Source of the DNA: Dubosiella newyorkensis
GTDB taxonomy: Bacteria > Bacillota_I > Bacilli_A > Erysipelotrichales > Erysipelotrichaceae
Assembly: GCF_001945605.1 (NCBI RefSeq)
Contig: NZ_MPKA01000060.1
Span: forward strand, 25,131-57,130
DNA length: 32,000 bases
Reading direction: 5' to 3'
The notes beneath the pieces were generated by a model that worked only from the letters and a program-made list of their open reading frames with translations, searched no databases and was not told the origin of the DNA. The position numbers and the translations under genes are program-made. Each line of letters opens with the position of its first letter. Position 1 is the stretch's first letter. Of this stretch, positions 11,752-32,000 are shown one piece after another.

Positions 11752-11771
11752 GCAAGAAAGGGAGGAAGAGC

Positions 11772-13082: not shown

Positions 13083-13100
13083 CTTCTTTTTTTCACGCAC

Positions 13101-13130
13101 AAAAAAAAGAGGTTTCCCTCTTCGTTTTGT
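13101..13130. terminator. Probable bidirectional terminator between the convergent membrane-protein gene and rpmB
   Basis: Stem AAGAGG (13107-13112) / CCTCTT (13117-13122) with loop TTTC. It is flanked by an A8 run upstream and CGTTTT downstream. The stem is short. Confidence 0.45.
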
Positions 13131-13140
13131 CTGATAAAGA

Positions 13141-13332: not shown

Positions 13333-13374
13333 CTTGCTTGCCCCCTTTACTTTCAGTTGCACAATTGCCTTAAC

Positions 13375-13403
13375 ATAATAGCATCCTCTTTCACGCTTTT
13401 CAA
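13375..13403 (-). promoter_or_regulatory. Sigma-A-type promoter for rpmB
   Basis: On the minus strand: TTGAAA (13403-13398), a 17-nt spacer, then TATTAT (13380-13375), about 40 nt upstream of the rpmB ATG. Confidence 0.5.
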
Positions 13404-13410
13404 GAACAAA

Positions 13411-13439
13411 TTGTCATCAATGAAGGAGTTTGCTATAAT
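13411..13439 (+). promoter_or_regulatory. Sigma-A-type promoter for mraY-murD
   Basis: TTGTCA (13411-13416), a 17-nt spacer, then TATAAT (13434-13439). GAGGAG at 13452-13457 lies 11 nt before the ATG. Confidence 0.55.
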
Positions 13440-13468
13440 CCTTATGAATGTGAGGAGTCTGTAAATTC

Positions 13469-15745: not shown

Positions 15746-15759
15746 AAGGAGGAAAATTC

Positions 15760-16624: not shown

Positions 16625-17599
16625 ATGGAAGATCAAAAGAATAAGAATTTGCCGCCTAAAATCGACGCGCAGAAGATGGAAGCTCAGCTTCAAGAGGAGA
16701 AAAAGAAGGAAGAAGCTTTTAATAAGAAGCAAAAGCAGAAGCGTTGGCTTTTGGTTGGCGGGATCATTGGGATCATGGTCGTGGCTGTTGTTTGTTTTGG
16801 TTTGTTCGTTTCGAAAGTGACGTATTCTGTCGCGGAAAGTATTGTCAATAATATTCCGGAGGAAGAGTTTCATGATTCTTCGTATCGTTTATTGAACGCG
16901 CCGGGTGAATATATAGCCAACGAGCAGCTTTCGATTGTGGAGGATCTTGAGGATCAAGACAAGATCGGCTTGATCAAGAAGGGCGAGTCTTTTTGGTGTG
17001 AAGATACGGCGTATGTCGATAGTAAAGAGGAGCTTTGGGGACAGCTCGGCATTGGCTGGGTCCTTTTGCGTGATCAAAATGGAAATTACGCGACGGAAAA
17101 TGTGTTGACGAGTGTGGATTCTACGCCTGGAACGGCTGAGATCTTAAAAGACATACGGGTGTATTCCGATCCTTCGACAAAGTCTACAATTTTAAAATCT
17201 TTAAAAAAAGGCGATCAAGTGGAGATCGTTTCGGAGAAAGAAGATATAAATGGTGTAGAATGGTTTGAGTTAGAGGATGGGTGGATCTTGAAGACGGACA
17301 ACGCGAAACGGATCGAATCAAGTCAAGAAGAGACGAAGGAAGAAAAGGAATCCAAAGAAACGGACGAGATCCCAGAAGATGAAGAGGGTATTCGTTACAA
17401 GGCGAAATACGATATGAAGGTTCGTGAGGAGCCAAGTTTGGAGGCGGAGCGCACTGGAACAGTCAAGTTGGATGAGGTCGTCGAGATCGTGGAGATCGGA
17501 GAAGACGAGGAGGGCGCTACGTGGGGCAAGATCCGAGATGGCGATTATGTCTGTTTGAAGGATAAGGACTATACGTATTTTGAAGAGGTGTCTGAATAG
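16625..17599 (+). CDS. Single-pass membrane protein with three SH3b-like repeats and acidic linkers
   Basis: Lys/Glu-rich N-terminus, then the TM segment WLLVGGIIGIMVVAVVCFGLFV. Three repeats end in LWGQLGIGWVLLRD, VEWFELEDGWILKTD and ATWGKIRDGDYVCLKD. Confidence 0.75.
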   Translation: MEDQKNKNLPPKIDAQKMEAQLQEEKKKEEAFNKKQKQKRWLLVGGIIGIMVVAVVCFGLFVSKVTYSVAESIVNNIPEEEFHDSSYRLLNAPGEYIANEQLSIVEDLEDQDKIGLIKKGESFWCEDTAYVDSKEELWGQLGIGWVLLRDQNGNYATENVLTSVDSTPGTAEILKDIRVYSDPSTKSTILKSLKKGDQVEIVSEKEDINGVEWFELEDGWILKTDNAKRIESSQEETKEEKESKETDEIPEDEEGIRYKAKYDMKVREEPSLEAERTGTVKLDEVVEIVEIGEDEEGATWGKIRDGDYVCLKDKDYTYFEEVSE

Positions 17600-17848: not shown

Positions 17849-18463
17849 ATGAAATTGATTAAATTTGGAAGTGCTGCTTTGGCCGCTACTATGGCTTTCA
17901 GCGCTGCCCCTGTTTTCGCAGCAGACAACAGTCCAATTCAAGGCGATGTTAATAAAAGACCTGGCGTTACTGAAGCGACAGTAGATGGCATTAAAATCGA
18001 AGTGACTGATAGCGCGATCACAGACGAAAAAGTATTAGAAGTTGTTAACGACGAACAAAAAGTTAAAGATATTTTGAAAGAAAACGGTTATAAAGTACCT
18101 ACTGGAGCAACTGTCGTTGTTCTTGGCGAAGGGGACTATAACTACGAAGTAAACGGAAAACCTGAAGAATTGAAAAAAGCCGTTGAAATGTCTTTCGACG
18201 CTGCTACCCTTGCAGCGAAAGATGGAGACCAAGTCTTTGTTCTTCACTTGAAACACGATGGTAAATGGGAAGTAATCTCTGCCGTTGTTGAAAAAGGCAT
18301 CATCAAAGTGACTTTGGATGGTCTTTCTCCAGTTGCGTTCTACAAAGTTGTAGATGAAAAGACTGGTAAAGTCGTTGAAATCACGAAAGAAGAAGCAGCT
18401 AAAGCTGGTGTTAACACAACGACAGCTAAGGTTGAAAAGAAATCTCCTAACACTGGAATCTAA
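17849..18463 (+). CDS. Small secreted protein of unknown function (Sec signal peptide)
   Basis: The N-terminus MKLIKFGSAALAATMAFSAAPVFA|AD looks like a signal peptide with an AxA cleavage site. It has its own promoter, a purine-rich RBS (GAAAGGAAG) and a strong terminator. The C-terminus ends ...KKSPNTGI. Confidence 0.8.
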   Translation: MKLIKFGSAALAATMAFSAAPVFAADNSPIQGDVNKRPGVTEATVDGIKIEVTDSAITDEKVLEVVNDEQKVKDILKENGYKVPTGATVVVLGEGDYNYEVNGKPEELKKAVEMSFDAATLAAKDGDQVFVLHLKHDGKWEVISAVVEKGIIKVTLDGLSPVAFYKVVDEKTGKVVEITKEEAAKAGVNTTTAKVEKKSPNTGI

Positions 18464-18574: not shown

Positions 18575-19597
18575 ATGCGTCGTTTTAAAAAGATCATGAT
18601 TGGCGTTCTCATCGTCTTGTTGCTGATCGTATGGGGTGTTGGGGGCACTTATTTTTATTTGAACTATAAGGGTCAAAAACAGCTCAAGGAAAGCGAAGTA
18701 CAGGATCGGGAAGGGACGTATATCACTTATCAAGGGAAAGAGTATCGGTATAATGACGATATGATCAATATCCTTTTTATGGGGATCGATAAAAAGGGTG
18801 GTATTGAAGAAGAGGTCGCGCCTGGTGTTCAAGGTCTGGCGGATTCGATCTTGCTCGTTTCTTTGGATACGACGAATGATAATTTGTTTATGTGGGCGAT
18901 TCCGCGGGATACGATGGCTCAGCTAAGAAGAACGGATGAGGCGGGTAATTTTGCGGAACCTTTTGAAGATAAGATCACGCTTCAATATGGGTATGGAAAT
19001 GGGGCTCAGGAAAGCTGCGAGCTGATGGAGGTGGCTGTTTCCAACTTGTTGTTCAAATTGCCTATTCAGCGTTATGTTTCGATCAATATGGATGCGGTTC
19101 CAATCGTGAATGATGCGGTTGGTGGAGTGAGCTTGACGGCTTTGGAAACGGTCGCCAATTCAAAGGGGATCTATTTTAATGAAGGAGACCAAGTTCATTT
19201 GATGGGTCAAGATGCCTTGAATTATATTCAAATTCGTGATATCAATCAGATTGGAAGCGCAATGGGACGTTTGAATCGTCAAAAACAGTATGTGGATGCT
19301 TTTTATCATCAAGCTTTGCAGGCTGTCAAACAAAACATTGGTCTCCCTGTTACCCTGTATAATGAATTAAAACCATATATGTATACGAATCTAACATTAG
19401 AGGATGTAACATATTTAGGAACGGAGTTTTTACAGACCCACTTTTCTATGGAGAATTTAAAGCAGATTCCTGGAGAAGCGGTTTATGATGAAAACTATCA
19501 TGGGGGAAGGACGGTATTCCGGGTAAATTATGATGAGCTTCAAAAGGAGATCATCGATACGTATTATACGGAAGTGAAAGAGGATAATGAGGAATAA
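18575..19597 (+). CDS. LytR-CpsA-Psr (LCP) family glycopolymer-peptidoglycan ligase
   Basis: N-terminal TM anchor, INILFMGIDKKG, ADSILLVSLD, and WAIPRDT, as in LCP proteins. Confidence 0.85.
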   Translation: MRRFKKIMIGVLIVLLLIVWGVGGTYFYLNYKGQKQLKESEVQDREGTYITYQGKEYRYNDDMINILFMGIDKKGGIEEEVAPGVQGLADSILLVSLDTTNDNLFMWAIPRDTMAQLRRTDEAGNFAEPFEDKITLQYGYGNGAQESCELMEVAVSNLLFKLPIQRYVSINMDAVPIVNDAVGGVSLTALETVANSKGIYFNEGDQVHLMGQDALNYIQIRDINQIGSAMGRLNRQKQYVDAFYHQALQAVKQNIGLPVTLYNELKPYMYTNLTLEDVTYLGTEFLQTHFSMENLKQIPGEAVYDENYHGGRTVFRVNYDELQKEIIDTYYTEVKEDNEE

Positions 19598-19758: not shown

Positions 19759-20814
19759 ATGAAGTCAATGGACCGTGAAGTAAATGAATTAGATTTTATA
19801 AATATAGTTTCCACAATAGGGGTTGTGTTTTTACATGTTAATAACTGTTTTTGGTCTTTTTCATCTACAGAAAGATATTGGGCAACAGCTAATGTGATTG
19901 AAAGTGTTTTTTATTTTGCGGTTCCTTTATTTTTTATGTTGTGTGGAGTTACTTTGATTGATTATAGATATAAGTATTCAACAAGAGACTATATTAAAAA
20001 ACGATTTATAAAAGTTTTTATTCCTTATATTTTCTGGAGTATTATCGGTATTATATGGACACATCTTATATTCTCTACAAATCAGGGAGTGTTTAAGATA
20101 TCTTTAAAAGAATTTATAAATTTATTACTTAGTGGTAATGGAATCAGATATTTTTGGTTCTTTATACCTTTGTTTATGATTTACATCTCAATCCCCTTTA
20201 TAGCATTTCTAGAGCAGGATAAAAAACTAACAGTATTTAAGATTTATATCCTTTTTTATATAGTAATGAATGCTGCTCTTCCTTTTTTTAATAATGTGTT
20301 TCAGTTAGGCTTGAATTTGACTCAGTGGAGAATTCCGATTTTAGAAGGTTTTATGGTTTATCCTTTACTTGGATATGTGATCAACAATATTCAACTAACA
20401 AAAAGGTTTAGACATATAATTTATTTTATTGGCTTGTTTTCATTAATATTAATTATTTTTGGGACCTATTATGAATCAATTAAGATCAATGCAATCAATG
20501 AAATTTTCAAAGGTTATTTAAATTTACCATGCATTTTATATTCTTTATCAATGTTTTGCTTTTTAAGAGAAATATTTCCAAAAATTAAGAATAATAAAAT
20601 GGTTTATTTATTTATAAAATGGTTACGTCCATATACATTTAGCATATTTTTAATTCACTTTTTCTTTTTAGATAGTATTGAACGTTTCCTAAGTATTGAC
20701 CAGCGCTCTATTATATATCGATTAATAGGTCCATTTGTAGTGATAATATTATCGGTATGTTTTGCTTATATAATTCGATTGTTTAAATATGGTAAATTTA
20801 TTCTCCCAAAATAA
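19759..20814 (+). CDS. Acyltransferase-3 family membrane protein (putative glycan O-acetyltransferase, OafA/WecH-like)
   Basis: 351 aa with about 10 hydrophobic helices. The N-terminal LDFINIVSTIGVVFLHV segment resembles the Acyl_transf_3 signature. Confidence 0.75.
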   Translation: MKSMDREVNELDFINIVSTIGVVFLHVNNCFWSFSSTERYWATANVIESVFYFAVPLFFMLCGVTLIDYRYKYSTRDYIKKRFIKVFIPYIFWSIIGIIWTHLIFSTNQGVFKISLKEFINLLLSGNGIRYFWFFIPLFMIYISIPFIAFLEQDKKLTVFKIYILFYIVMNAALPFFNNVFQLGLNLTQWRIPILEGFMVYPLLGYVINNIQLTKRFRHIIYFIGLFSLILIIFGTYYESIKINAINEIFKGYLNLPCILYSLSMFCFLREIFPKIKNNKMVYLFIKWLRPYTFSIFLIHFFFLDSIERFLSIDQRSIIYRLIGPFVVIILSVCFAYIIRLFKYGKFILPK

Positions 20815-20936
20815 TTTGATAAAATTTTGGAAATTTAATTATAGAATGGTTTAGATTATTTTAAATAATTTGTTTAGAGTTGTTTTTTTTAATGAAAACG
20901 AAATCTTGTTTTTATATGAATCAAAAGGAGAATTGA

Positions 20937-21713
20937 ATGAAAGTAGTAATTTTAGCTGGTGGATTTGGAACGAGAATTAGTGAAGAGTCGTATTTGAAAC
21001 CCAAACCGATGATTGAAATAGGCGAAAAACCGATTTTATGGCATATTATGAAGTACTTTTCGCATTTTGGTTTTAATGAGTTTATTATTTGTTTAGGATA
21101 TAAAGCTCATAAAGTTAAAGAATTTTTTGATGATTATTATTTGTATACATCCGATATAGAATACGATTTTATTAATGGAGAAAAAAAAGTTCTTTCGAAT
21201 ACGGCTGAACCTTGGAAAGTAACATTAATTGATACTGGTCTTCATACTATGACTGGCGGAAGGTTAAAGAGAGTCAAAGATTATATTGGAGATGAGCCGT
21301 TTATCATGACTTATGGAGATGGTGTGGCAGATGTTGATCTTTTAGATTTGATTGATTTCCATAAAAAAGGGAATCGTTTAGCCACAATAACAGCTGTTCA
21401 ACCTGGAGGTCGTTTTGGGGTGCTTGATTTAGCTAAAGATGGTCAAATCAAACGTTTTCGAGAGAAATCGGTAGAAGATGGTGGATGGATCAATGGTGGT
21501 TTTATGGTTCTAGAACCTCAGGTGCTTGATTATATTGATGGAGATAAAACGACATTTGAAAGAGAACCTTTAGAAACAATTGCTAGCGAAGGGAATCTAG
21601 ATGCTTATAAACATTATGGATTTTGGCAATGTATGGATACGATGAAAGATAAACAGCAATTGGAAGAACTGTTTGAAAAAGGAGAAGCCCCATGGAAAGT
21701 TTGGCAGGATTAA
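20937..21713 (+). CDS. rfbF: Glucose-1-phosphate cytidylyltransferase
   Basis: MKVVILAGGFGTRISEESYLKPKPMIEIGEKPILWHIMKYFSHFGFNEFIICLGYK matches the RfbF/DdhA N-terminus as I remember it. AAAGGAG RBS. Confidence 0.9.
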   Translation: MKVVILAGGFGTRISEESYLKPKPMIEIGEKPILWHIMKYFSHFGFNEFIICLGYKAHKVKEFFDDYYLYTSDIEYDFINGEKKVLSNTAEPWKVTLIDTGLHTMTGGRLKRVKDYIGDEPFIMTYGDGVADVDLLDLIDFHKKGNRLATITAVQPGGRFGVLDLAKDGQIKRFREKSVEDGGWINGGFMVLEPQVLDYIDGDKTTFEREPLETIASEGNLDAYKHYGFWQCMDTMKDKQQLEELFEKGEAPWKVWQD

Positions 21714-22759
21714 AAAATTTTTATAAAGGAAAAAAAGTTCTTTTGACAGGACATACAGGATTCAAAGGATCTTGGTTATGTGCGATCCTTCATTATTTTG
21801 GTGCGCAAGTCGTTGGAGTTTCGTTAAAGCCAAATACTGTTCCTTCTCTTTATGAGGTTGGAAATATAGACTCTCTTGTTTATTCTTATATTTGTGATAT
21901 TCGGAATTTAAAGGAATTACAGGAAATATTTGAAAGAGAACAACCGGAAATCGTTTTTCATTTGGCTGCTCAACCTATAGTGCTTGATTCATATACTGAT
22001 CCTGTCTATACATATGAAACGAATGTGATGGGAACTGTTCATGTTTTGGAGTGTATTCGAAAAACATCAAGTGTGAAATCTTTTGTCAATGTTACGACTG
22101 ATAAAGTCTATCAAAATAAAGAATGGGAATGGGGATATCGTGAAATTGATCGATTGAATGGATATGATCCATATTCGAACAGTAAATCATGTTCTGAATT
22201 AGTTACTGACTCATATACTAAGTCTTTCCTGAATGATTTAGGAATCATTGTTTCGACTGCTCGGGCTGGAAATGTGATTGGCGGAGGTGATTTTGCTAAT
22301 TTCAGAATTATTCCAGATTGTGTGCGGGCCATGGAGGAAGGAAAGGAGATCGAAGTTCGAAATCCAAATTCCACTCGTCCGTATCAACATGTTTTGGAGC
22401 CCTTATTTGCATATTTAATGATTGCGCAATCCCAATATATGGATGCCGATAAAGCGGGAAATTACAATATTGGTCCTGATGAAACGGATTGTATCACAAC
22501 TGGAGAATTGGCAACGATTTTCTGTGAAGAATGGAGAGATGGAGCTAAATGGCATGCGATTGATTATAACGCTCCACATGAAGCAAACTTTTTAAAATTG
22601 GACTGCTCAAAATTAAAAACCACGTTCGGGTGGAAGCCAAGATGGAATGTCAGAGAAGCGGTTCGAAAAACGGTAGAATGGTCTAAGTCGTATTTTGCAG
22701 GTGAAAATGTATTAGACACTATGCAAAAGCAGATTAAAGAATATATGAAGGAGGAATAA
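21692..22759 (+). CDS. rfbG: CDP-glucose 4,6-dehydratase
   Basis: KKVLLTGHTGFKGSWL, a YSNSK (YxxxK) catalytic motif, and a length of 355 aa. AAGGAG lies 7 nt upstream of the ATG. 22-nt overlap with rfbF. Confidence 0.9.
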   Translation: MESLAGLKNFYKGKKVLLTGHTGFKGSWLCAILHYFGAQVVGVSLKPNTVPSLYEVGNIDSLVYSYICDIRNLKELQEIFEREQPEIVFHLAAQPIVLDSYTDPVYTYETNVMGTVHVLECIRKTSSVKSFVNVTTDKVYQNKEWEWGYREIDRLNGYDPYSNSKSCSELVTDSYTKSFLNDLGIIVSTARAGNVIGGGDFANFRIIPDCVRAMEEGKEIEVRNPNSTRPYQHVLEPLFAYLMIAQSQYMDADKAGNYNIGPDETDCITTGELATIFCEEWRDGAKWHAIDYNAPHEANFLKLDCSKLKTTFGWKPRWNVREAVRKTVEWSKSYFAGENVLDTMQKQIKEYMKEE

Positions 22760-22762
22760 TAA

Positions 22763-24106
22763 ATGTTTAAGAATAAAACAGAACAGGAAGCAAGAGCGGA
22801 AATTCTTCAATTGGTTAGTGAGTATTGTGATGCTTTTCATAATCAAAATAAGGAATATCAGGAAGGAGATCGAATTCCTTATGCTTCTCGTGTTTATGAT
22901 CATGATGAAATGGTCAACTTAGTCGATAGTTCCTTAGATTTCTGGTTGACTTCTGGTCGTTATACAGATGAATTCGAAAAGAAACTAGCAGAGTATTTAA
23001 ATGTACGATTCTGTTCATTGGTCAATTCGGGATCAAGCGCAAACTTGCTTGCCTTCATGACGTTGACATCTCCTCTTTTGGGAGAGCGTCGTGTAAAACG
23101 CGGAGATGAAGTAATTACAGTTGCGGCAGGTTTTCCAACGACTGTGACTCCAATGATCCAATATGGAGCGGTGCCAGTTTTTGTTGACGTTACGATTCCT
23201 CAATACAACATTGATGTGACAAAGCTTGAAGAAGCGTTAAGTCCGAAAACAAAAGCGGTTATGATTGCCCATACCCTAGGAAATCCTTTTGATTTAAAGG
23301 CGGTAAAAGAATTCTGTAAAAAGAATAATTTATGGCTAATTGAAGATAACTGTGATGCTTTAGGATCTACTTATACGATCGATGGAGTAACCAAGCAAAC
23401 TGGGACGATTGGCGATATCGGAACATCAAGTTTTTATCCACCACACCATATGACGATGGGTGAAGGTGGAGCTGTTTATACAAACAATCCGGTTTTAAAT
23501 AAAATTGCCCGTTCTTTCCGGGACTGGGGAAGAGATTGCGTTTGTAATCCGGGACAAGATAATATGTGTGAACATCGGTTTGATCGTCAATATGGAGAGC
23601 TTCCATTAGGATATGACCATAAATATGTATATTCCCACTTTGGATATAACTTAAAAGCAACTGATATGCAGGCAGCAATTGGGTGTGCACAGCTTGAAAA
23701 ATTTCCGTCTTTCGTTGAAAAAAGAAAAGAGAATTTTAGAAGAATGCGCTCTCAATTGGAAGGGCTTGAAGAATATTTGATTTTACCTGAAGCGGCTGAG
23801 AATTCTGATCCAAGTTGGTTTGGCTTTTTGATCACATGCAAAGAAGGCGTTGATCGTAATGCGCTCGTTCAATATATCGAAGATCATGGTGTGCAGACAC
23901 GAATGCTTTTTGCAGGAAACTTAACCAAGCATCCTTGCTTTGATGAAATGCGTAAGAATAAAGAAGGATACCGTATTATTGGTGATTTGACAAATACCGA
24001 TCGAATCATGAACGAATCGTTCTGGGTAGGATTGTATCCTGGCATGTCAGAAAAGAAAATCGATTACATGGCGAAAGTAATTAGAAACTATTTTGAAGAA
24101 AACTAA
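22763..24106 (+). CDS. rfbH: CDP-4-keto-6-deoxy-D-glucose 3-dehydrase (E1; DegT/DnrJ/EryC1 fold, PMP and Fe-S dependent)
   Basis: GDEVITVAAGFPTTV. FYPPHHMTMGEGG has His where aminotransferases of this fold carry the Schiff-base Lys. DNCDALG...DCVCNPGQDNMCEHRF reproduces the C-x57-C-x1-C-x7-C [2Fe-2S] pattern of E1. SDPSWFGF is also present. Confidence 0.88.
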   Translation: MFKNKTEQEARAEILQLVSEYCDAFHNQNKEYQEGDRIPYASRVYDHDEMVNLVDSSLDFWLTSGRYTDEFEKKLAEYLNVRFCSLVNSGSSANLLAFMTLTSPLLGERRVKRGDEVITVAAGFPTTVTPMIQYGAVPVFVDVTIPQYNIDVTKLEEALSPKTKAVMIAHTLGNPFDLKAVKEFCKKNNLWLIEDNCDALGSTYTIDGVTKQTGTIGDIGTSSFYPPHHMTMGEGGAVYTNNPVLNKIARSFRDWGRDCVCNPGQDNMCEHRFDRQYGELPLGYDHKYVYSHFGYNLKATDMQAAIGCAQLEKFPSFVEKRKENFRRMRSQLEGLEEYLILPEAAENSDPSWFGFLITCKEGVDRNALVQYIEDHGVQTRMLFAGNLTKHPCFDEMRKNKEGYRIIGDLTNTDRIMNESFWVGLYPGMSEKKIDYMAKVIRNYFEEN

Positions 24107-24142
24107 CTTCAAAATAGTTTTCGTTTTGTAATGAGGAAATTT

Positions 24143-25066
24143 ATGAAGAAACAAAAAGCTATTATTACCGGTGGGACCGGGATGATTGGAATTGCATTGA
24201 TTCGATGTTTATTAACAAACGATATAGATGTAACTGTCATTGTAAATCCAAATTCCAATCGTCAATCCGTTTTAAACCAGTTTAACACGATTAAAATCGT
24301 ACAAAAAGATATAAGTCATTTGAAAGAACTAGGTGATGTCTTACCTCATGATTATACGTACTTCTTCCACTTAGCGTGGATGGGGACATTTGGTGATTCT
24401 AGAAATGACATGTATCTGCAAACAAAAAATATTGAATATACTTTAGATGCAGTTAATTTAGCTAAGGCATTAGGATGTGAAGTGTTTTTAGGGACAGGAT
24501 CTCAAGCTGAATATGGACCGGTAAAGGAAAAAATGAGTGCAGAAACTCCAACCAATCCTGTCACAGGATATGGAATCGCAAAATTATGTGCAAATAGAAT
24601 GAGTCGGATATATGCTCAATCTCTAGGACTTCGCCATATATGGGTTAGAGTATTGAGTGTATTTGGTCCATACGATGGTCAGGGAACAATGGTTATGTCA
24701 GGGTTGAAGAATATGTTAGCCGGGCATGAAGGAAAATATACCAAAGGCGAACAAATGTGGGACTATCTTTATTGTGAGGATGCGGCTCAAGCGCTTTATA
24801 AGGCAGCAAAAAAAGGAAAAGACGGAAAAATCTATCCATTGGGAAGCGGTGAAGTAAAGCCTTTGAAAGAATATATTGAAATCATGAGGGATAATGTAGA
24901 TCCCAATCTTTCATTAGATTTTGGCAGTGTTCCTTATTATCCTAATCAAGTCATGTATATGTGCGCTGATATTGAGGATTTAAAAAAAGATACTGGATTT
25001 GAGCCTGAACATACATTTGATGAAGGCATAAAAAAGACAATTCAATGGATCAAGGAAGGTGATTAA
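24143..25066 (+). CDS. Extended SDR, CDP-paratose/CDP-abequose synthase-like 4-ketoreductase
   Basis: Rossmann motif ITGGTGMIG, catalytic YGIAK (YxxxK), and a C-terminal VMYMCADIEDLKKDTGF segment that recalls RfbS/RfbJ. It sits directly after rfbH. GAGGA lies 5 nt before the ATG at 24143; the track start at 24131 is less likely. The stereochemistry of the product is not decidable from sequence. Confidence 0.7.
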   Translation: MKKQKAIITGGTGMIGIALIRCLLTNDIDVTVIVNPNSNRQSVLNQFNTIKIVQKDISHLKELGDVLPHDYTYFFHLAWMGTFGDSRNDMYLQTKNIEYTLDAVNLAKALGCEVFLGTGSQAEYGPVKEKMSAETPTNPVTGYGIAKLCANRMSRIYAQSLGLRHIWVRVLSVFGPYDGQGTMVMSGLKNMLAGHEGKYTKGEQMWDYLYCEDAAQALYKAAKKGKDGKIYPLGSGEVKPLKEYIEIMRDNVDPNLSLDFGSVPYYPNQVMYMCADIEDLKKDTGFEPEHTFDEGIKKTIQWIKEGD

Positions 25067-25999
25067 ATGAAAAAAATCAGTGTTTTGGTTCCTTGTTATA
25101 ACGAAGAAGAAAATGTCATACCAATGAGTGAGGCGTTGACAGTGTTGTTCAGAGAACAATTGCCTCAATATGATTATGAAGTTGTCTTCATTGACAACTG
25201 TTCGACAGATACAACTCGAGAAAAATTAAAAATGATATGTCGAGGGGATTCAAAAATCAAAGCAATATTAAACGCAAAAAATTTTGGCCAGTTTAATTCA
25301 CCTTATTATGGCATGCTTCAAACGACAGGAGATTGTGTAATTTGTTTATGCTGTGATTTTCAAGATCCTGTTGAACTTATTCCAAAGTTTATAGAAGAAT
25401 GGGAAAAGGGATATAAAATCGTTTGTGGTGTAAAAACACAAAGTGAAGAGAATAAATTCGTTCGCTTTTTAAGAACTTGTTATTATAAAGCAATCAAAAA
25501 AATGTCGGATGTAGAACAAATTGAACATTTTACAGGATTTGGTCTTTATGATCGCTCTTTCATTGAAGTTTTAAGGGATTTAAAAGATCCAACTCCATTT
25601 TTAAGAGGAATCGTTGCAGAATTGGGACCTAAAAGGAAAGATATTCCTTATACCCAAGCAAAACGCCGAGCCGGAAAAACTCATAATAACTGGTATAGTT
25701 TGTATGATGCTGCCATGTTGAGCTTTACATCGTATACAAAGATTGGATTGCGTATCGCTACTATCGGGGGCTTTATTATTTCGATGATCAGCTTTTTGAT
25801 TGCGATCGTTTATCTCATTTTAAAGCTCATTCATTGGAATACATTCCAAGCGGGGATCGCACCGATTCTTTTAGGAATATTCTTCTTTGGATCATTGCAG
25901 CTTTTCTTTATTGGACTGGTTGGAGAATATATCATGAGTATGAACACTCGGATCATGAATCGACCTCTTGTGGTGGAAGAAGAGAGGCTGAACTTTTAA
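25067..25999 (+). CDS. GT2 polyprenyl-phosphate glycosyltransferase (GtrB/CsbB/ArnC/DPM1-like)
   Basis: VLVPCYNEEENV, FIDNCSTD, and CDFQDPVELIP (a DxD-type motif). Two C-terminal TM helices end in GEYIMSMNTRIMNRP, the hallmark of lipid-phosphate sugar synthases. Confidence 0.85.
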   Translation: MKKISVLVPCYNEEENVIPMSEALTVLFREQLPQYDYEVVFIDNCSTDTTREKLKMICRGDSKIKAILNAKNFGQFNSPYYGMLQTTGDCVICLCCDFQDPVELIPKFIEEWEKGYKIVCGVKTQSEENKFVRFLRTCYYKAIKKMSDVEQIEHFTGFGLYDRSFIEVLRDLKDPTPFLRGIVAELGPKRKDIPYTQAKRRAGKTHNNWYSLYDAAMLSFTSYTKIGLRIATIGGFIISMISFLIAIVYLILKLIHWNTFQAGIAPILLGIFFFGSLQLFFIGLVGEYIMSMNTRIMNRPLVVEEERLNF

Positions 26000-26008
26000 G
26001 GAGATGCT

Positions 26009-27700
26009 ATGAAAGAACTAAGGATAAATTATAAATCAATAAGGCTTGGTTCTTTTCTGTATCTGTCTCTTCCTGTTGTGTTATTTTTTATAGGCTTTGT
26101 AAAATGGAACATTGCGCTTCCCGCGATTCTTTTTATTGGATGGATTGTTTTTAAGCTGGGAAGAGAAAAGGAAGACTCTCGATATGTAACGTTTAAAATA
26201 AATACTTTATTGATTGTTATTTTTATTTTTATTCTTTGGGCTTATTTTGGAGGACAAGGTGGATTATTTTATCAAACAAGTGATTGGAATGAACGAAATG
26301 CGATTTTTAGAGATTTGATTCAATTTGATTGGCCTGTTTACTATCCAAAAACAGATACGATGTTGACTTATTATATTGGTCATTGGCTTCCAGCAGCAGG
26401 TATGGGCAAAGTAATCAATATTTTATCTTCTAATCGTGTGCTCGCCTTTCAAATCGGAAATCTATTTCTTGCGTTATGGACTATTATCGGGGTTTTGTTT
26501 ACTTACTTGTTGATGATAATTTATATTCAACCAAAATCAAAAAATTTAAAGTGGATTATTCTAGTCGTCTTTATTGGTTTCAGCGGTATGGATGTAATTG
26601 GATGTATTCTTGAAAAATGGAACTGGCAAACATTTATGGAATGGATGCATTTGGAATGGTGGTCGCCAGGCTATCAATTTAGTTCTAATACTACCGATCT
26701 TTTTTGGGTTTTTAATCAAGCTATACCAGCTTGGGTAGCAACCATGTTATTTTTGAATGAAAAATCTCCAAAACATTATGCATTCATCATTGGTTGTCTT
26801 TTGTTAGCGGCTACTTTTCCGGCAGTTGGCCTTGCGGTTTTGATGATTGGAAAATACATAGGCGATTTAATACGAGTGATTCATTCCAAATCGCAAAAAA
26901 ATTTTTTAATAGAAACTTTATCTGTCTCTAATATTGGATCTGTTCTTCTTTTAGTTCCTACTATCCTTTCTTATTTATTGATGAATAGCGCTATTGGAAA
27001 GACGAAAGAGAATACTTATGTTTTGTCAGACCAGCTACATCTTACTTCAACAATGAAGGGATTGATAATCGTAATGAGTATTGTCGCATTGATTGGATTG
27101 ATCTATATATGGATAAAAAGAAGAGAAGTGCAAAAACAAAAATCTTTAAGATTTATTTTAGGTTCATTAGTTTTGTTATTGCTTTTAATTGGGATGGTCA
27201 TCACACATCCAGAGACTCGAAGAATTTATTTTGTTTTTTTGACTTTAGAATGTGGAATATATTGGCTTTGTTTAGCTCCAGATTTTGCAAACCGTTATTT
27301 ATATTATTTAATCGCAGGAACTTTGTTAGTATTTCCTATGATTCATATAGGAACTTCCATTGATTTTTGTATGCGGGCATCTATTCCAAGTTTAATTATC
27401 TTGACCACTTTATGTGCCAAGAAAATATGTGACTGGATCTATAACGGAAAAAGATTTAATGGAATACAAAATGCAAGTACTATTTTACTCATAGGTTTTC
27501 TTTGTATAGGTAGCATTACACCTATCGTGGAAGTGGGAAGAGGAATTTACAAAGCAACGGAATCGGGGACAACAAGTCTTCAAGCAGATCAAATCAAGTC
27601 ATTAAACAAATATCATGAGACAGGAAGAACCTACTATAACTTTGTGTCTGAAGATTATAAAAATAAGTTTTTTTATAAAAATTATGCAGTGTTGAGGTAG
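26009..27700 (+). CDS. Large polytopic membrane protein, putative GT-C-fold glycosyltransferase or polymerase
   Basis: 563 aa with more than 10 hydrophobic segments. It contains an aromatic and acidic loop, QTSDWNERNAIFRDLIQFDWPVYYPKTD. AAGGAG RBS. I recognise no specific family. Confidence 0.6.
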   Translation: MKELRINYKSIRLGSFLYLSLPVVLFFIGFVKWNIALPAILFIGWIVFKLGREKEDSRYVTFKINTLLIVIFIFILWAYFGGQGGLFYQTSDWNERNAIFRDLIQFDWPVYYPKTDTMLTYYIGHWLPAAGMGKVINILSSNRVLAFQIGNLFLALWTIIGVLFTYLLMIIYIQPKSKNLKWIILVVFIGFSGMDVIGCILEKWNWQTFMEWMHLEWWSPGYQFSSNTTDLFWVFNQAIPAWVATMLFLNEKSPKHYAFIIGCLLLAATFPAVGLAVLMIGKYIGDLIRVIHSKSQKNFLIETLSVSNIGSVLLLVPTILSYLLMNSAIGKTKENTYVLSDQLHLTSTMKGLIIVMSIVALIGLIYIWIKRREVQKQKSLRFILGSLVLLLLLIGMVITHPETRRIYFVFLTLECGIYWLCLAPDFANRYLYYLIAGTLLVFPMIHIGTSIDFCMRASIPSLIILTTLCAKKICDWIYNGKRFNGIQNASTILLIGFLCIGSITPIVEVGRGIYKATESGTTSLQADQIKSLNKYHETGRTYYNFVSEDYKNKFFYKNYAVLR

Positions 27701-27715
27701 AAATGGAAGTGTAAA

Positions 27716-29587
27716 GTGAGGGAAATGATAAAAAAAGTGAATTGGCAAAAGCAGATAAAACAGTTATGGATCATTAATTTATTTTTTCTGATATTTTATA
27801 TGAGTGCTATTTATAGTTCTAGTTGGAAAGTAGTAAGAGCCAATTGGATGATGTTAGAGGGAATTTTAATTATTGGAAGCATAGTTGCTTTATCTTATAA
27901 GCTAGGAAAATTTAAAATAGAAAAGAATTTCGAAATAGAAAAAATTATAAAAAAGAATTGGTTATTCTGCTTAATTTTTTTAGGAAGTATTCTTATTAGA
28001 ATCTCTCAACTTACTGGTGGAATTATTTGGGATGCAGGTGAATATTATGGTCGACTAATTACTGCAACGGAAAAGTTTGACTTTTCGTTAACGGCTTTTT
28101 TGGATAATTTTAATTTAGCAAATCACCCTAATTATGGATATACCTTTTTCACAGGTATTGGAGAGTTTTTATTTCCTAGAAAAGTTTGGGGAGTGAATTT
28201 GGTAGTTTTAATTTTAACAGCATTTGCACTTGTTTTTTTATATAGAATATTTAACAAATATTTAAAACTAAATAAAACGACATCTTCTCTTTTGTGTGGT
28301 TTATTTAGCTTCTCACCATTAGTTCTTGGTACCAGTGGATACTATAATCCAGATTATGGAATTGCTTTATTTTTTATATTTATAATGTATTTTTTTCTCG
28401 AAAAAAAGTATATTTTATTTACATTTTGGAGTATTTGTTTTGTATTTACAAAAGAAGTTTCAGCGATTATATATTTTTTCTTTATTGTAGGCATTCTAAT
28501 GGCGAAATTTCTCGAAAAAAAAGATGAAAAGGTTGGAAATAGTTTTTTTATCATCTTTAAGAATCCAGTTATATATATATCTATCATAGTTGGTTTGTTC
28601 TATCTTGGATATATGAAATATATTGGAGGAATAACTAAATGGAAACAAGTAGAGGGAGCTGGAAGTAATTTTACTTGGAATAACGATGGTTTTAATTGCT
28701 TTGGGTTTAATAGAGAATACGTAATCCTTAAGTTTCAGCAAATGTTTATTGAAAACTATAGATGGATTATTATTATCCTGGCTTTCTTTGGATGTTTACT
28801 GATTCTTCTCTTTAAAAAGAAATTGAATTTATCCGTCAATAAGTATTTACTTTTCAGTATTGTTTTAAGCTTACTTAGTTATATTTGCTTTAATTGTTTA
28901 TATATTACATTTGCTTTAGTTCGTTATAATTATATATCTGATCTCTTAATTATTATAGTTTTAGGAATGATAATTAGTGAAATTTCAAAATTAAAGGCAA
29001 AAAACATTATAAATGGATCGCTGATAATGATTTGCGTTATTTTTTGTATAGAGAGTTTTGTAACGACAGATCCAATTTCTAAGGCTATTTATCCATTTGT
29101 GCCTACGAATTCTATTAGTATGATTTATCCCGGATACTTAGAAAAAGAAATTTATTATGGGGATAATTTAGTTTATAACAACCAATACTCTTTTCTTTCA
29201 AAAAGCTATAATCAATTTTTAAAAAATATAGAATATGATGAAAAGAAGATGGTGGCTTTTCCGGGGAACTTTGATGGTAGTCAGATAAACGGAAATGGCG
29301 AAATATATCAAGTAAACTGGGATAAAAAGAACTCAAGAAGAACGTTTGAGAATCTTTCTGATTCGGTAATTCCGATTAAAACGGAAAATTTGGAATCAAT
29401 TCTTTCTATTAAAAAGAAAAAAGATATGCCAGAAGAAGTAGTAGTTCCTTTTATTCCTTACTTCTATTGGAATTTAGGTAAAAACGAAGTAAAAGAAGAA
29501 ATGAAGAAAAATTATGAATTGATTTTAGAAGGAAAGACAGAAGGGATTCAAGGGAATATAGAATACCAATACTATAAAAAGAAATAG
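27716..29587 (+). CDS. Large polytopic membrane protein with a C-terminal ~180-aa soluble domain, GT-C-like (ArnT/PMT/YfhO-type architecture)
   Basis: 623 aa. An early loop, GGIIWDAGEYYGRLI, carries a D.xE acidic motif where GT-C enzymes have their catalytic Asp/Glu. Multiple TM segments run to about residue 440, followed by a hydrophilic tail. The start is uncertain (GTG 27716 or ATG 27725). Confidence 0.6.
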   Translation: MREMIKKVNWQKQIKQLWIINLFFLIFYMSAIYSSSWKVVRANWMMLEGILIIGSIVALSYKLGKFKIEKNFEIEKIIKKNWLFCLIFLGSILIRISQLTGGIIWDAGEYYGRLITATEKFDFSLTAFLDNFNLANHPNYGYTFFTGIGEFLFPRKVWGVNLVVLILTAFALVFLYRIFNKYLKLNKTTSSLLCGLFSFSPLVLGTSGYYNPDYGIALFFIFIMYFFLEKKYILFTFWSICFVFTKEVSAIIYFFFIVGILMAKFLEKKDEKVGNSFFIIFKNPVIYISIIVGLFYLGYMKYIGGITKWKQVEGAGSNFTWNNDGFNCFGFNREYVILKFQQMFIENYRWIIIILAFFGCLLILLFKKKLNLSVNKYLLFSIVLSLLSYICFNCLYITFALVRYNYISDLLIIIVLGMIISEISKLKAKNIINGSLIMICVIFCIESFVTTDPISKAIYPFVPTNSISMIYPGYLEKEIYYGDNLVYNNQYSFLSKSYNQFLKNIEYDEKKMVAFPGNFDGSQINGNGEIYQVNWDKKNSRRTFENLSDSVIPIKTENLESILSIKKKKDMPEEVVVPFIPYFYWNLGKNEVKEEMKKNYELILEGKTEGIQGNIEYQYYKKK

Positions 29588-29604
29588 AGAAGAGAGAGGT
29601 AAAT

Positions 29605-30831
29605 ATGAACGAGTCAAAAACTTCTAAAAATGTAATCTATAATACCATAGGGACATTCTTTTATTTCTTTTGTCAATGGTTGACAACTATTCTTGTAGTC
29701 CGAATAAGTGGGTATAAAGATGCGGGTATTTTGTCGATTGTGATTTCTTTTACAAATATTTTTTATTTCATAGCTTTATTTGGCGTTCGAAATTTTCAAG
29801 TTACAGATATTAATCATGAGTTTACAGATCGGGATTATTTTGATTCGAGACATATTACATCTGGAATAGCTCTAATTCTTTTTGTGATTTCATTGTTTTG
29901 TATACGATTTAGTCATATAACAGTAATATGTTGTATTTTTTATATGATATTTAAAGTTTTTGAAGGATATACAGATGTGATTTTTGGGATTTGGCAAAAT
30001 CATGATGGATATATTGAAATCTTGGTTTCCTATATTGGAAAAGGAATTTTAACGATTGCTGGTTTCTGTATTGGATTATATTTATTTAATTTGCCAATTG
30101 CGATTGCGATTCAAGCCCTTCTATATTTCTTATTTATTGCATTGTATGACGGGAATCAAATAAAGAAATTAGTAAATGATTTTGAAGTAAAGACAAATCA
30201 ATCTAAAAAGATGCTAATTCCGTGCGTACCTTTAATGATTTATGGATTGATCGTACCTTATTTGAATTTTTTATCTCGATATGTGGTGGAATTAAAATTT
30301 GGAACAGAGATACTCGGTTATTACTCTTCTATCACAATGGTTTTTACCGTGATGAGTACATTAATGGGATCTATTTTTGTAACAGTACTTCCTAAAATCG
30401 CTTATTTATATCAGACAGGAAACTATAAAGAACTGAATAAGTTTATTTTGTTAGCAAACCTAGGAATTGTTGGATTTGGCGTTTTATGTGTAGGGTTAGG
30501 AATCGTATTGGGAAATTTCGTATTTTCTATTTTGTTTGGTAAGCAAATTCTTGATTATATGTATTTGTTAACACCAACAATTATTGCTTCTATAATCTTA
30601 TCTTTAGTTTCTTTGACAAGCTCTATTATGATTTCTTTTCGAAAAAATCATTTAATGCTAATGATAAATATAATTGGTGTTGTATTGTGTACGTTGTTTA
30701 TTTCATTTATAGTTGATTCTTTTAGCTTGGTCGGTGCTTTGTATGCATTGATTTTAAGTCTCGCTATTATATATATTATTTTATTTATAATTATTGAATT
30801 TGAGATCGCTAAAAAGAAAGGATACATCTAG
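29605..30831 (+). CDS. MOP-superfamily polysaccharide flippase (Wzx/RfbX-like)
   Basis: 408 aa with about 12 TM segments. The N-terminus NVIYNTIGTFFYFFCQWLTTILVVRISGYKDAGILS is typical of Polysacc_synt proteins. GAGAGG RBS. Confidence 0.7.
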   Translation: MNESKTSKNVIYNTIGTFFYFFCQWLTTILVVRISGYKDAGILSIVISFTNIFYFIALFGVRNFQVTDINHEFTDRDYFDSRHITSGIALILFVISLFCIRFSHITVICCIFYMIFKVFEGYTDVIFGIWQNHDGYIEILVSYIGKGILTIAGFCIGLYLFNLPIAIAIQALLYFLFIALYDGNQIKKLVNDFEVKTNQSKKMLIPCVPLMIYGLIVPYLNFLSRYVVELKFGTEILGYYSSITMVFTVMSTLMGSIFVTVLPKIAYLYQTGNYKELNKFILLANLGIVGFGVLCVGLGIVLGNFVFSILFGKQILDYMYLLTPTIIASIILSLVSLTSSIMISFRKNHLMLMINIIGVVLCTLFISFIVDSFSLVGALYALILSLAIIYIILFIIIEFEIAKKKGYI

Positions 30832-31880
30832 TGAATTGTTTGAATTTAAGATCTATAGTAAAGAAAGGCGATTTATCTCTTAAAAAAAAGAAAGTTTTTT
30901 TTGGAATATTATTAGCTCTTTTTGTTATTCTTTATAATTTTATATGGATTGATAAAACATTTACAATGTCTGAAGGTTGGGCGCAATTCTATAACGGTTT
31001 ACTTGATCAAGGAAAAATACCATATAGAGATTTTTATTTTCATCTGCCTCCTTTGAATTTATTGAATGATTATATCATATGGAAATTATCTTTTGGATAC
31101 TTTATTATCTATCGAATGTGGAGATTGGCGGAGAGGATTCTAATTGTAGAGATAATGTATTATCTTTTAATTAAAAAAGTGAAACCTAGTATTGCTTTTG
31201 TAGGTTGTTTTATGGGTGCCGTATTTGGGAGTGCTACGGTATTTGATTTAGGAGGAGATTATAACCAACTTCAGCAATTGTTAATCGCTCTAATAGCCTA
31301 TACTCTTATTAAATATATCGAGAATATAAAAATTCCGAAGAAGAAATATGGTTGGTGTATAGCAACAGGAATTATCGGCGGATTAATGTTTTTGACAAAA
31401 CAACCATTAGTTTTAGCAAGTCTTGTTTGTTTTGGTATAATGATGGTTTTCTTATGGATTTTAAAAATTGATAAAAATATTTTCAGAACGATTTTTTTTG
31501 TGGTTTTAGGAGCATCTATACCGTTATGTATAGCAGGAGCATATCTTATTAATAATAATGCAATCCACGATTTTATTTATCAAGTTTTTCAAGATACTGG
31601 CTCTAAGGGATCGCTTTATGAAATTGTATTTGGAAGAATTTTAACGACTATAAAAAATAATATTTTTGGAATATTGAGTTTAATTTTTTGCATTCTTTCC
31701 TATTATATGTATATAAACCAGAATCAAATAAGAAAAAACTATGCATTCATGTTCGGAATTTTAGGAGGAATATTTGGAAGTTATTATATTTGGAATACAG
31801 GAGATGTAGCAAAAAGAGTTATATTGTTTTTTTTGTTAATGACACTTCTTGTTTCTTTTTTAACATTAAATAATATATAG
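30831..31880 (+). CDS. Polytopic membrane protein, GT-C/PMT_2-like first-loop motif; short for the family
   Basis: 349 aa. After the first TM segment comes a loop, FTMSEGWAQFYNGLLDQGKIPYRDFYFHLPPL. This resembles the acidic-residue...PYxDF...PPL loop of PMT_2/GT39-like enzymes. The only start that retains TM1 is non-ATG (GTG 30831, a 1-nt overlap with the flippase stop). Confidence 0.55.
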   Translation: MNCLNLRSIVKKGDLSLKKKKVFFGILLALFVILYNFIWIDKTFTMSEGWAQFYNGLLDQGKIPYRDFYFHLPPLNLLNDYIIWKLSFGYFIIYRMWRLAERILIVEIMYYLLIKKVKPSIAFVGCFMGAVFGSATVFDLGGDYNQLQQLLIALIAYTLIKYIENIKIPKKKYGWCIATGIIGGLMFLTKQPLVLASLVCFGIMMVFLWILKIDKNIFRTIFFVVLGASIPLCIAGAYLINNNAIHDFIYQVFQDTGSKGSLYEIVFGRILTTIKNNIFGILSLIFCILSYYMYINQNQIRKNYAFMFGILGGIFGSYYIWNTGDVAKRVILFFLLMTLLVSFLTLNNI

Positions 31881-32000
31881 ATTATCCTAAATAATCCGCC
31901 TTTGCTCAAATGACTTGTTCAAATCATTTAACACTTAAACAATAAAGCGTTTCAATAATAAAGATAGATAGAAAGAAGTGTATCTCTATGAATCCAGCTT

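Follow-up and report, generated by a model that had tools for sequence, protein, structure and literature searches.

The stretch of DNA analyzed here, hereafter the window, comprises 32,000 nucleotides of the genome of Dubosiella newyorkensis, a member of the Erysipelotrichaceae (contig NZ_MPKA01000060.1, positions 25,131 to 57,130 of the forward strand) and carries a block of sugar-pathway and membrane glycosyltransferase genes that may well serve to decorate a wall glycopolymer. An original prediction, made from the letters of the sequence alone, had described ten consecutive genes on the plus strand between positions 19759 and 31880, and all ten open reading frames (ORFs) were found where that prediction had placed them (Table 1). 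They encode a membrane acyltransferase-3 (AT3), RfbF, RfbG and RfbH, an extended short-chain dehydrogenase/reductase (SDR), a family 2 glycosyltransferase (GT2), two polytopic proteins designated P7 and P8, a Wzx-like flippase (P9) and a further polytopic product (P10). Intergenic gaps within the block are shorter than 30 nt with the exception of the 122 nt between AT3 and rfbF; a gene for a putative LytR-CpsA-Psr (LCP) ligase precedes AT3 by 161 nt, as had also been noted. The G+C content falls from approximately 45% on the backbone to 25–40% from about 19.6 kb onward, which matches the expectation for an acquired island. Beyond the end of the window, the locus could be followed in an exactly matching sequence that contains the window and continues downstream (L001, assembly GCA_041448535.1).

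Table 1. Features of the block, its upstream neighbor and the genes that follow it. Positions are those of the window unless marked L001.
Feature	Position	Strand	Evidence
LCP (LytR-CpsA-Psr) glycopolymer-peptidoglycan ligase, putative	18575..19597	+	PF03816, 81.8 bits; TIGR00350, 72 bits (cut-off 62)
Membrane acyltransferase-3 (AT3), 351 aa	19759..20814	+	PF01757 Acyl_transf_3, 110 bits
RfbF/DdhA, glucose-1-phosphate cytidylyltransferase	20937..21713	+	TIGR02623, 397.5 bits (cut-off 300)
RfbG/DdhB, CDP-glucose 4,6-dehydratase	21692..22759	+	TIGR02622, 444 bits (cut-off 278)
RfbH/DdhC (E1), CDP-4-keto-6-deoxyglucose 3-dehydrase	22763..24106	+	NF011936, 740 bits (cut-off 423)
Extended SDR, 311 aa (gene-caller start 24143, 307 aa)	24131..25066	+	PF01370, 131 bits
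GtrB/ArnC-type polyprenyl-phosphate glycosyltransferase (GT2)	25067..25999	+	GtrB 5EKE, 145 bits; ArnC, 105 bits
P7, 563 aa, polytopic, distant GT-C-like fold	26009..27700	+	AF2 (AlphaFold2) model, pLDDT 92.5; Foldseek
P8, 623 aa (gene-caller start 27725, 620 aa), GT-C fold	27716..29587	+	AF2 model, pLDDT 90.9; Foldseek
P9, 408 aa, Wzx/MOP-like flippase	29605..30831	+	Polysacc_synt, 26.8 bits (under cut-off 28.2)
P10, 349 aa, 5' part of a 919-aa gene (codons 1-348)	30831..31880	+	identity to P0345
IS630-family element, left end (about 1.18 kb in total)	31876..32000, continuing to ~L001 12221	+	DDE_3 and helix-turn-helix (HTH) Pfam matches, L001 11158-12209
YerE-like thiamine diphosphate (ThDP) enzyme, 610 aa	L001 14026-15858, ~3 kb past window end		JanthE 8RPH, 438.6 bits, full length
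Eda-type aldolase and PfkB kinase	L001 15887-17558 (window-equivalent 36717-38388)

The three rfb genes encode enzymes of a cytidine diphosphate (CDP) sugar pathway, and each product scores above its curated NCBIfam equivalog cut-off, in agreement with the names given in the original prediction. RfbH aligns over its full length with the Yersinia pseudotuberculosis E1 structure (3BCX/3BB8, 542 bits), to which it is approximately 60% identical in an alignment inspected by eye. It carries the active-site histidine pair (H228) in place of the aminotransferase lysine and keeps the [2Fe-2S] motif (C197, C259, C261 and C269). The partner reductase E3 (RfbI/DdhD/AscD) appears to be missing: its C-x4-C-x2-C-x25-35-C motif occurs in no frame of the window and in none of the ORFs of at least 90 aa from 81 loci, the rest of the genome not having been searched, and no E3 gene is present among the Pfam-annotated genes of the neighborhoods. 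This is a real departure from the textbook CDP-3,6-dideoxyhexose pathway, and E1 would have to take its electrons from a general reductase. SpnQ, an E1-type enzyme, runs on general ferredoxin or flavodoxin reductases, for which reason the gap need not be fatal to the pathway.

The SDR encoded next had been labeled an RfbS/J-like reductase, a specificity that its matches do not reach, as they are confined to generic epimerase/dehydratase families and include no equivalog; the YxxxK motif lies at Y147-K151. We propose that it acts as a YerF-like side-chain ketoreductase, the alternative being a C4 reductase. A hairpin with a 15-bp stem (24084-24121) lies over the rfbH stop codon just ahead of the SDR start and is the sole long inverted repeat within the block, in which a scan for promoters and terminators returned site counts equal to chance expectation.

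The GT2 fits its earlier description as GtrB-like from end to end, with residues 3-303 aligning to residues 27-325 of the GtrB structure 5EKE and a catalytic domain that is followed by two C-terminal transmembrane helices (segments at 237-285). The full-length alignment to GtrB and ArnC, together with the C-terminal transmembrane hairpin, identifies the protein as a polyprenyl-phosphate glycosyltransferase. Narrower assignments were rejected, as the GT2 reaches only 121 bits against the cut-off of 529 for the ArnC equivalog and 172 bits against the cut-off of 500 for PgfS (NF047588), its best named NCBIfam match.

P7 and P8 were assigned from predicted structures. For P8 the fold is clear in the model, which has a beta-rich extracytoplasmic domain at its C-terminus: in a Foldseek search of the PDB, each of the best 25 matches is a GT-C glycosyltransferase, with ALG12 (E 5e-6, TMt 0.56) first and ALG9, ArnT (5F15), Pmt4, PglB, STT3, AglB, AftB, AftD, Emb and DPY19 among the others. 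There are 857 detectable homologs; D106, Y110, H137, K246 and E247 are invariant. P7 is predicted to be a more distant GT-C-like protein, for which GT-C enzymes alone exceed a template modeling (TM) score of 0.29 in the PDB, with ALG9 at the top (probability 1.0, TM 0.36) followed by EmbB, PglB and Pmt4. No Pfam domain occurs in any of the more than 1100 homologs of P7, and a Pfam scan of 35 aligned members likewise found no family; residues D92, R96, N97 and D102 are invariant and lie in a loop that is probably outside the membrane. Neither protein matches Pfam, Wzy_C (PF04932) included, or any named NCBIfam family beyond a weak 'cell surface glycopolymer formation' domain. Searches of all PDB sequences with the two family hidden Markov model profiles gave nothing meaningful, and no relationship between P7 and P8 emerged from hhalign. 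The possibility raised in the original prediction that these polytopic proteins are of the Wzy or WaaL type was rejected, along with a SEDS assignment, since the folds are GT-C and no such proteins appear among the fold-search matches. P9, with about 10 transmembrane helices, is identified in sources as an 'oligosaccharide flippase family protein' and had no phmmer match in the PDB. There is no GtrA gene in the block, where the intergenic gaps are too short to conceal one, and flipping is probably performed by the Wzx-like P9 in place of GtrA.

P10 had been counted as a third polytopic protein and is instead a 5' gene fragment, which rules it out as an independent small GT-C enzyme. At 100% identity, its residues 1-348 match the same positions of a 919-aa protein from other D. 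newyorkensis strains (P0345), and a 584-aa ORF on the far side of an insertion sequence (IS) element (L001 12184-13938) is 100% identical to residues 349-919 of the same protein. The IS630-family transposase starts with the ATG at 31989 and is read as a pair of ORFs, 173 and 162 aa long, which were merged by the gene caller into a 349-aa product; a TA duplication marks the element's junctions. Other D. newyorkensis assemblies hold intact alleles of 874-922 aa, the P0345 allele lacks the insertion, and the gene is absent from D. muris. NCBI names the 919-aa protein 'ArnT family glycosyltransferase'; P10 itself yields a weak PMT_2 match only (E 1.4e-3) in Pfam, no phmmer match in the PDB and no hhalign relationship to the P7 profile, the P8 profile or a GT87-like cluster (c15). 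Hence, of the three GT-C-like enzymes originally proposed, P7 and P8 stand as intact genes of GT-C type and the third is disrupted in this strain. The C-terminal extracytoplasmic region of the 919-aa protein has Gly-rich repeats, and a member of its UniRef cluster is named 'GLUG domain-containing protein', an appendage that is unusual for a GT-C enzyme.

Within the 10 kb past the window, L001 first carries the IS element and the remaining 3' half of the split gene. Genes for a ThDP enzyme, an aldolase of the 2-keto-3-deoxy-6-phosphogluconate (KDPG) type and a PfkB kinase come next, and then those for a putative glycosyltransferase with DUF4422, a second Wzx and a polytopic protein that is Wzy-like. 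The ThDP enzyme was rejected as a biosynthetic acetolactate synthase because it falls under every cut-off for that function and is about twice as close to JanthE (8RPH, 438.6 bits) as to the best acetolactate synthase structure (232 bits). JanthE has been termed a 'YerE-like enzyme' (PMC12188165). YerE joins pyruvate to CDP-4-keto-3,6-dideoxy-D-glucose and YerF reduces the resulting branch to give yersiniose A, while ErwE, MMAR_2332 and MyGE use aldolase-made 4-hydroxy-2-keto acids on the way to erwiniose, caryophyllose and gastriose; a set of ddh genes with a ThDP enzyme, an NAD(P)H reductase and an aldolase has been proposed as the sequence signature of such acyl-branched sugars (PMC9306805). 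In the Dubosiella locus and in its relatives this set of genes is present together with a kinase or phosphatase, an addition that hints at a phosphorylated 2-keto-3-deoxy acid, resembling 2-keto-3-deoxygluconate (KDG) or KDPG, as the branch donor. The aldolase exceeds the Eda subfamily cut-off with 259 bits, and a KDG-kinase fusion model gives 595 bits for the kinase. In D. muris the same pair lies upstream of AT3 (L006 1822-3480) rather than downstream of the ThDP gene, indicating that the locus has been rearranged between the two species.

A scan with the P7 profile over one genome per species returned 498 loci, from which 80 were fetched on P7 similarity alone, and gene presence in these 80 was scored by tblastn and ORF clustering. 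Most belong to gut Clostridia (Lachnospiraceae, Oscillospiraceae, Christensenella, Gemmiger and Mediterraneibacter), with others in Dubosiella muris, Olsenella, Elusimicrobia and a metagenome-assembled genome of the Treponemataceae. Genes for RfbH were found in 25 loci and the ThDP enzyme (35-96% identity) in 22, with both present in 19. GT2 orthologs (45-96% identity) occur in 26, and 20 of these also have rfbF, rfbG or rfbH. The originally predicted coupling of a CDP-dideoxyhexose pathway to a GtrB-like GT2 and GT-C enzymes in a Gram-positive bacterium is thereby borne out as a recurrent gene association. The usual order is rfbF-rfbG-rfbH-(GtrA)-(aldolase)-ThDP-(HAD)-SDR-GT2-P7. An SDR accompanies the ThDP enzyme in 16 loci, mostly as ThDP-SDR-GT2; the SDR lies directly upstream of the GT2 with a gap below 40 nt in 15 of 20 loci, and GT2 and P7 are less than 100 nt apart in 9 of 26. 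An aldolase joins the ThDP enzyme in nine loci, seven times HMGL-like and twice Eda-type; the aldolase next to the ThDP gene is Eda-type in D. newyorkensis and in L056. GtrA (PF04138) is present in 10 of the 80 loci and a P9-like Wzx in 8; among loci with a GT2, nine have GtrA only, three a P9-like protein only and one has both. Where at least 8 kb is available on each flank, 19 of 38 loci contain module genes, and P7 proteins linked to the module are spread across most of the family tree, in contrast to the DUF4422/Wzx-linked P7 proteins that form a single clade.

A metagenomic locus reached through a P8 homolog (L093) has the order RfbF-RfbH-ThDP-HMGL aldolase-PfkB-SDR-GT2-RfbG followed by a 912-aa P8-like GT-C, with identities to the Dubosiella proteins of 87% (ThDP), 69% (PfkB) and 71% (GT2). 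In Olsenella (L034) an operon of GT2, SDR and a P8-like gene was observed. A P8-like GT-C in a further locus (L089, 249-9115) stands beside rfbH-like, SDR, ThDP, CMP-sugar synthetase-like (CTP_transf_3) and NeuB genes, which may represent a different branched or nonulosonic sugar route that employs the same GT-C family. The two genes at the left of the Dubosiella block are not part of this shared module. AT3, a putative O-acetyltransferase of the glycan, has a copy of 53% identity at the same position in D. muris (L006) and none was seen in other loci. The LCP gene, which sits on the higher-G+C backbone, is context for the module, its adjacency not being conserved even in D. muris, and no LCP homolog occurs within 10 kb of the module there or in the other compared loci.

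These associations bear on which sugar is made. The SDR might be a C4 reductase of the RfbS/RfbJ type, yielding CDP-paratose, CDP-abequose or an epimer for loading onto undecaprenyl phosphate and GT-C transfer, with the ThDP enzyme, aldolase and kinase being unrelated metabolic genes. The SDR gene stands right after rfbH, as rfbS or rfbJ does in Salmonella; the ThDP gene is 8 kb away in this strain, past an IS element; Eda and PfkB score like an ordinary KDPG aldolase and KDG kinase; and one well-covered locus (L060) has rfbFGH, SDR and GT2 with no ThDP enzyme within 10 kb. However, 19 of the 25 loci that have rfbH also encode the ThDP enzyme, and of the six that do not, five are contigs shorter than 12 kb; in most loci the ThDP gene lies between rfbH and the SDR. 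The ThDP enzyme also groups with YerE-like enzymes and not with acetolactate synthases, and the operon of L093 includes the PfkB ortholog, flanked by the aldolase and SDR genes. D. muris has the ThDP gene immediately after P9, and the separation of this gene from the block in D. newyorkensis is attributable to the recent insertion of the IS element and a gene. We regard the C4 reductase explanation as unlikely, and CDP-paratose or CDP-abequose, the products originally named, are probably not what this locus makes given the conserved YerE-like ThDP enzyme, aldolase and kinase past nucleotide 32000.

A second question is whether the GT2 draws on the CDP-sugar at all. It could take an ordinary UDP-sugar while the CDP-sugar is used by a downstream cytoplasmic Leloir glycosyltransferase, as in Salmonella, Yersinia and mycobacterial lipooligosaccharide. 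To our knowledge, every characterized enzyme of the GtrB, ArnC and DPMS type uses a UDP- or GDP-sugar. From the other side, all characterized 3,6-dideoxyhexose and yersiniose-type sugars are incorporated by Leloir glycosyltransferases (PMC9306805). The gene neighborhoods argue otherwise: the 20 of 26 GT2 loci that have rfbF, rfbG or rfbH represent several bacterial families, usually with the genes in the same operon beside the SDR, and the operon of L093 holds no Leloir glycosyltransferase. In a Lachnospiraceae locus (L033, ~10000-13600), the order is P7-rfbF-GT2 (76% identity) with rfbG, rfbH and the ThDP enzyme all absent; an ortholog beside rfbF alone suggests that this GT2 clade takes CDP-sugars, and the donor there would be CDP-glucose itself. 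Separate use of the two sugars appears highly improbable.

The genes further downstream define the setting in which the block would operate. The Wzy-like gene extends from L001 20055 onward, and one of its homologs carries PF04932. The gene content beyond it was deduced from related Dubosiella loci (L087 and L006). In an uncultured Dubosiella (L087), three GT2s, another LCP, a GT1 and UDP-galactopyranose mutase (Glf) come after DUF4422, Wzx and the Wzy-like gene, and D. muris (L006) confirms the first of the three GT2s. The DUF4422, Wzx and Wzy-like genes found here, taken with those of L087, point to a conventional Wzx/Wzy-type wall-polysaccharide locus. In L087 (5437-8554) a GT2, GtrA and a 601-aa DUF6020 protein lie between DUF4422 and Wzx in place of the rfb island, which is a case of cassette swapping, and the block represents one of several decoration cassettes that occupy this polysaccharide locus as alternatives. 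The original prediction had named an ordinary locus of this kind downstream, with P7 and P8 as Wzy/WaaL-type proteins, as what would reduce the block to a standard capsule locus: the second Wzx, the Wzy-like gene and DUF4422 are indeed present, but P7 and P8 are not Wzy/WaaL-like. What does change is the idea of a self-contained system, in place of which we favor decoration of a conventional polysaccharide.

The same setting accommodates a dual-chain scheme of the Lactococcus polysaccharide pellicle (PSP) type, in which the GT2 primes a lipid monophosphate, Leloir glycosyltransferases (DUF4422 and the downstream GT2s) extend the chain on the cytoplasmic side, P9 flips the oligosaccharide, P7 and/or the Wzy-like protein polymerize it and P8 joins the product to another polymer of the wall. 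Dual-chain architecture is found in the rhamnose-rich wall polysaccharides of lactococci and enterococci. The flippase of the block is Wzx-like and not GtrA, Leloir glycosyltransferases, a second Wzx and a Wzy-like gene are nearby, and one P7 sub-clade adjoins DUF4422 and the second Wzx in loci that have no GT2. In most relatives, however, the core is GT2, GtrA and P7 in an operon with no Leloir glycosyltransferase (L093, L043, L054, L072 and L081), which fits the transfer of a single sugar, and GtrA and P9-like proteins largely replace one another. We consider a dual-chain role quite unlikely.

The identity of the acceptor invites a further explanation with the same donor chemistry, namely that the sugar goes to surface proteins, as in Streptococcus mutans Pgf with its GT2 (PgfS), epimerase and two membrane glycosyltransferases, or to lipoteichoic acid, as in CsbB/YfhO and GtlA/GtlB. 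PgfS is the best named match of the GT2, and the order SDR-GT2-membrane glycosyltransferase-membrane glycosyltransferase resembles that of PgfS, PgfM1, PgfE and PgfM2. Against this, the PgfS score is well under its cut-off, the one weak domain is the closest that P7 and P8 come to a named NCBIfam family, and the genes around the cassette, among them LCP, Wzx, Glf and a Wzy-like gene, are those of a polysaccharide locus. A protein or lipoteichoic acid acceptor seems to us very unlikely.

Taken together, the block is best read as a mobile, strain-variable cassette that would decorate a wall glycopolymer by a variant of the three-component extracytoplasmic scheme, a reading that we hold to be somewhat better than an even bet. 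In the cytoplasm, RfbF, RfbG and RfbH, identified by sequence, would convert glucose-1-phosphate to CDP-4-keto-3,6-dideoxy-D-glucose. The YerE-like ThDP enzyme would then use a 2-keto acid to place an acyl branch on C4; this donor is probably formed or trimmed by the neighboring KDPG-type aldolase and PfkB kinase, and the SDR would reduce the branch carbonyl in the manner of YerF. The predicted product is a CDP-activated, branched 3,6-dideoxyhexose of the yersiniose, erwiniose or caryophyllose type, as suggested by the conserved gene association and the published retro-biosynthetic scheme. From CDP the sugar would be moved by the GtrB-like GT2 to undecaprenyl phosphate, an unprecedented donor class for such an enzyme, and the lipid-linked sugar would be flipped by the Wzx-like P9, as presumably by GtrA in related loci. 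Outside the membrane, P8 and P7, and likewise the 919-aa ArnT-family protein where intact, may transfer it to one or more positions of a polysaccharide that the downstream Wzx/Wzy-like machinery would build and an LCP would anchor, with AT3 perhaps O-acetylating the product.

Several observations weigh against this decoration scheme. The specificity of the GT2 for a CDP-sugar is inferred from gene association alone, and we know of no CDP-dependent polyprenyl-phosphate glycosyltransferase. Because the aldolase and kinase resemble ordinary eda and kdgK products, they could be simply catabolic; in this strain the IS element and broken gene split them and the ThDP gene from the block, so co-regulation is not evident. 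In some loci at least, the SDR may act as a C4 reductase, as L060 with no ThDP enzyme indicates. No rfbF, rfbG, rfbH or GT2 gene is seen within reach in 42 of the 80 P7 loci, and the P7 fold match is weak at a TM score of 0.36. No priming transferase was seen, and we know of no glycan structure for Dubosiella or related organisms.

A bolder version would make the product a previously undescribed long-chain branched sugar, that is, a 3,6-dideoxyhexose with a polyhydroxylated, possibly phosphorylated C5-type branch derived from a KDG- or KDPG-like 2-keto-3-deoxy acid, for which the linked aldolase and PfkB kinase would be the source. It would combine the first known CDP-dependent polyprenyl-phosphate glycosyltransferase with a new GT-C-like family, P7, working with P8-type GT-Cs on the outer side of the membrane, and would constitute a widespread, strain-variable surface epitope of gut Firmicutes. 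This version covers the cassette and at least 19 relatives in gut Clostridia, Erysipelotrichales and other anaerobes; we offer it tentatively, as a possibility that probably does not hold in full.

Genes of the backbone include rsgA, rpe, thiamine pyrophosphokinase, mraY, murD and uppP. Of these, mraY, murD and uppP (bacA) lie together at 13469-16557 after rsgA-rpe-thiamine pyrophosphokinase, in a region that has strongly positive GC skew and negative AT skew and does not hold a full dcw cluster. Two ORFs are of no convincing family: one of 436 aa (11772-13082), for which a weak DUF308 match was the only result, and one of 204 aa (17849-18463). A 324-aa SH3-repeat protein (16625-17599) has a 39%-identical copy at the far end of L087 and may be a border marker of the polysaccharide region.

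If the decoration scheme is correct, branched yersiniose-type sugars would occur on the walls of gut Firmicutes including Dubosiella, Mediterraneibacter, Gemmiger, Christensenella, Lachnospiraceae and Oscillospiraceae, lipid-phosphate/GT-C glycosylation outside the membrane would extend to CDP-activated sugars, and two large uncharacterized families of membrane proteins, with more than 1100 (P7) and more than 850 (P8) homologs, would gain a function. Strain-variable epitopes of this kind would be candidate phage receptors and targets of immune recognition, which is relevant to D. newyorkensis, a commensal of the mouse gut whose host effects have been studied. The scheme also lends itself to experiment, as the enzymes are soluble or already modeled and carriers exist in culture. 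In the literature searched, we found no description of GT-C or GtrB enzymes combined with a dideoxyhexose in such a system, and yersiniose-type sugars were found only for Gram-negatives (O-antigens), mycobacteria (lipooligosaccharides) and actinomycete antibiotics, with no structural report for Firmicutes. Bioinformatic work has predicted an rfbFGH(S) set in flagellar glycosylation islands of Clostridium (PMC13317340), so a CDP pathway in Firmicutes is not by itself new. The general logic of three-component glycosylation is likewise established, and it is the predicted wiring of a CDP-sugar to a lipid phosphate that would be without known precedent.

Comparison with characterized systems places the cassette among several of them. 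With the Salmonella and Yersinia CDP-3,6-dideoxyhexose pathway (RfbF/G/H/I with RfbS or RfbJ) it shares three orthologous first enzymes, whereas RfbI/E3, an identifiable RfbS or RfbJ and a Leloir abequosyl or paratosyl transferase are all missing. The pathways to yersiniose, erwiniose, caryophyllose and gastriose (DdhA-D, YerE/YerF, ErwE/F/I/J and MMAR_2331-2333; PMC9306805) have in common with it ddhA, ddhB, ddhC, a YerE-like ThDP enzyme, an SDR and an adjacent aldolase. They differ in that the host here is a Gram-positive gut anaerobe, that DdhD/E3 is absent, that the aldolase is Eda-type here and HMGL-like in relatives, with an added PfkB kinase or HAD phosphatase, and that the predicted sugar would pass to a polyprenyl-phosphate GT2 and GT-C instead of a Leloir glycosyltransferase. 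The S. mutans Pgf system (PgfS, PgfM1, PgfE and PgfM2) similarly combines a GT2, an SDR and two large polytopic membrane glycosyltransferases in one block, but here the sugar pathway is a different one, the genomic context is a polysaccharide locus and neither P7 nor P8 fits a PgfM model.

The three-component systems, that is, GtrA/GtrB/Gtr* of Shigella and Salmonella phages, CsbB/YfhO, GacI/J/K/L and SccN/M of Gram-positives and the pentofuranose systems (PMC11127046), share with the cassette a GtrB-type GT2, a flippase and one or more GT-C enzymes that act outside the membrane on a pre-made glycopolymer, as well as the character of a variable, horizontally mobile unit. In contrast to their UDP-hexose or phosphoribosyl pyrophosphate (PRPP) as starting material, the cassette has a CDP-based pathway (rfbFGH and the YerE-like enzyme), a Wzx-like protein in place of GtrA, and two intact and one disrupted GT-C gene for a single GT2; of the GT-C-like partners, P7 belongs to a family that has no Pfam model.

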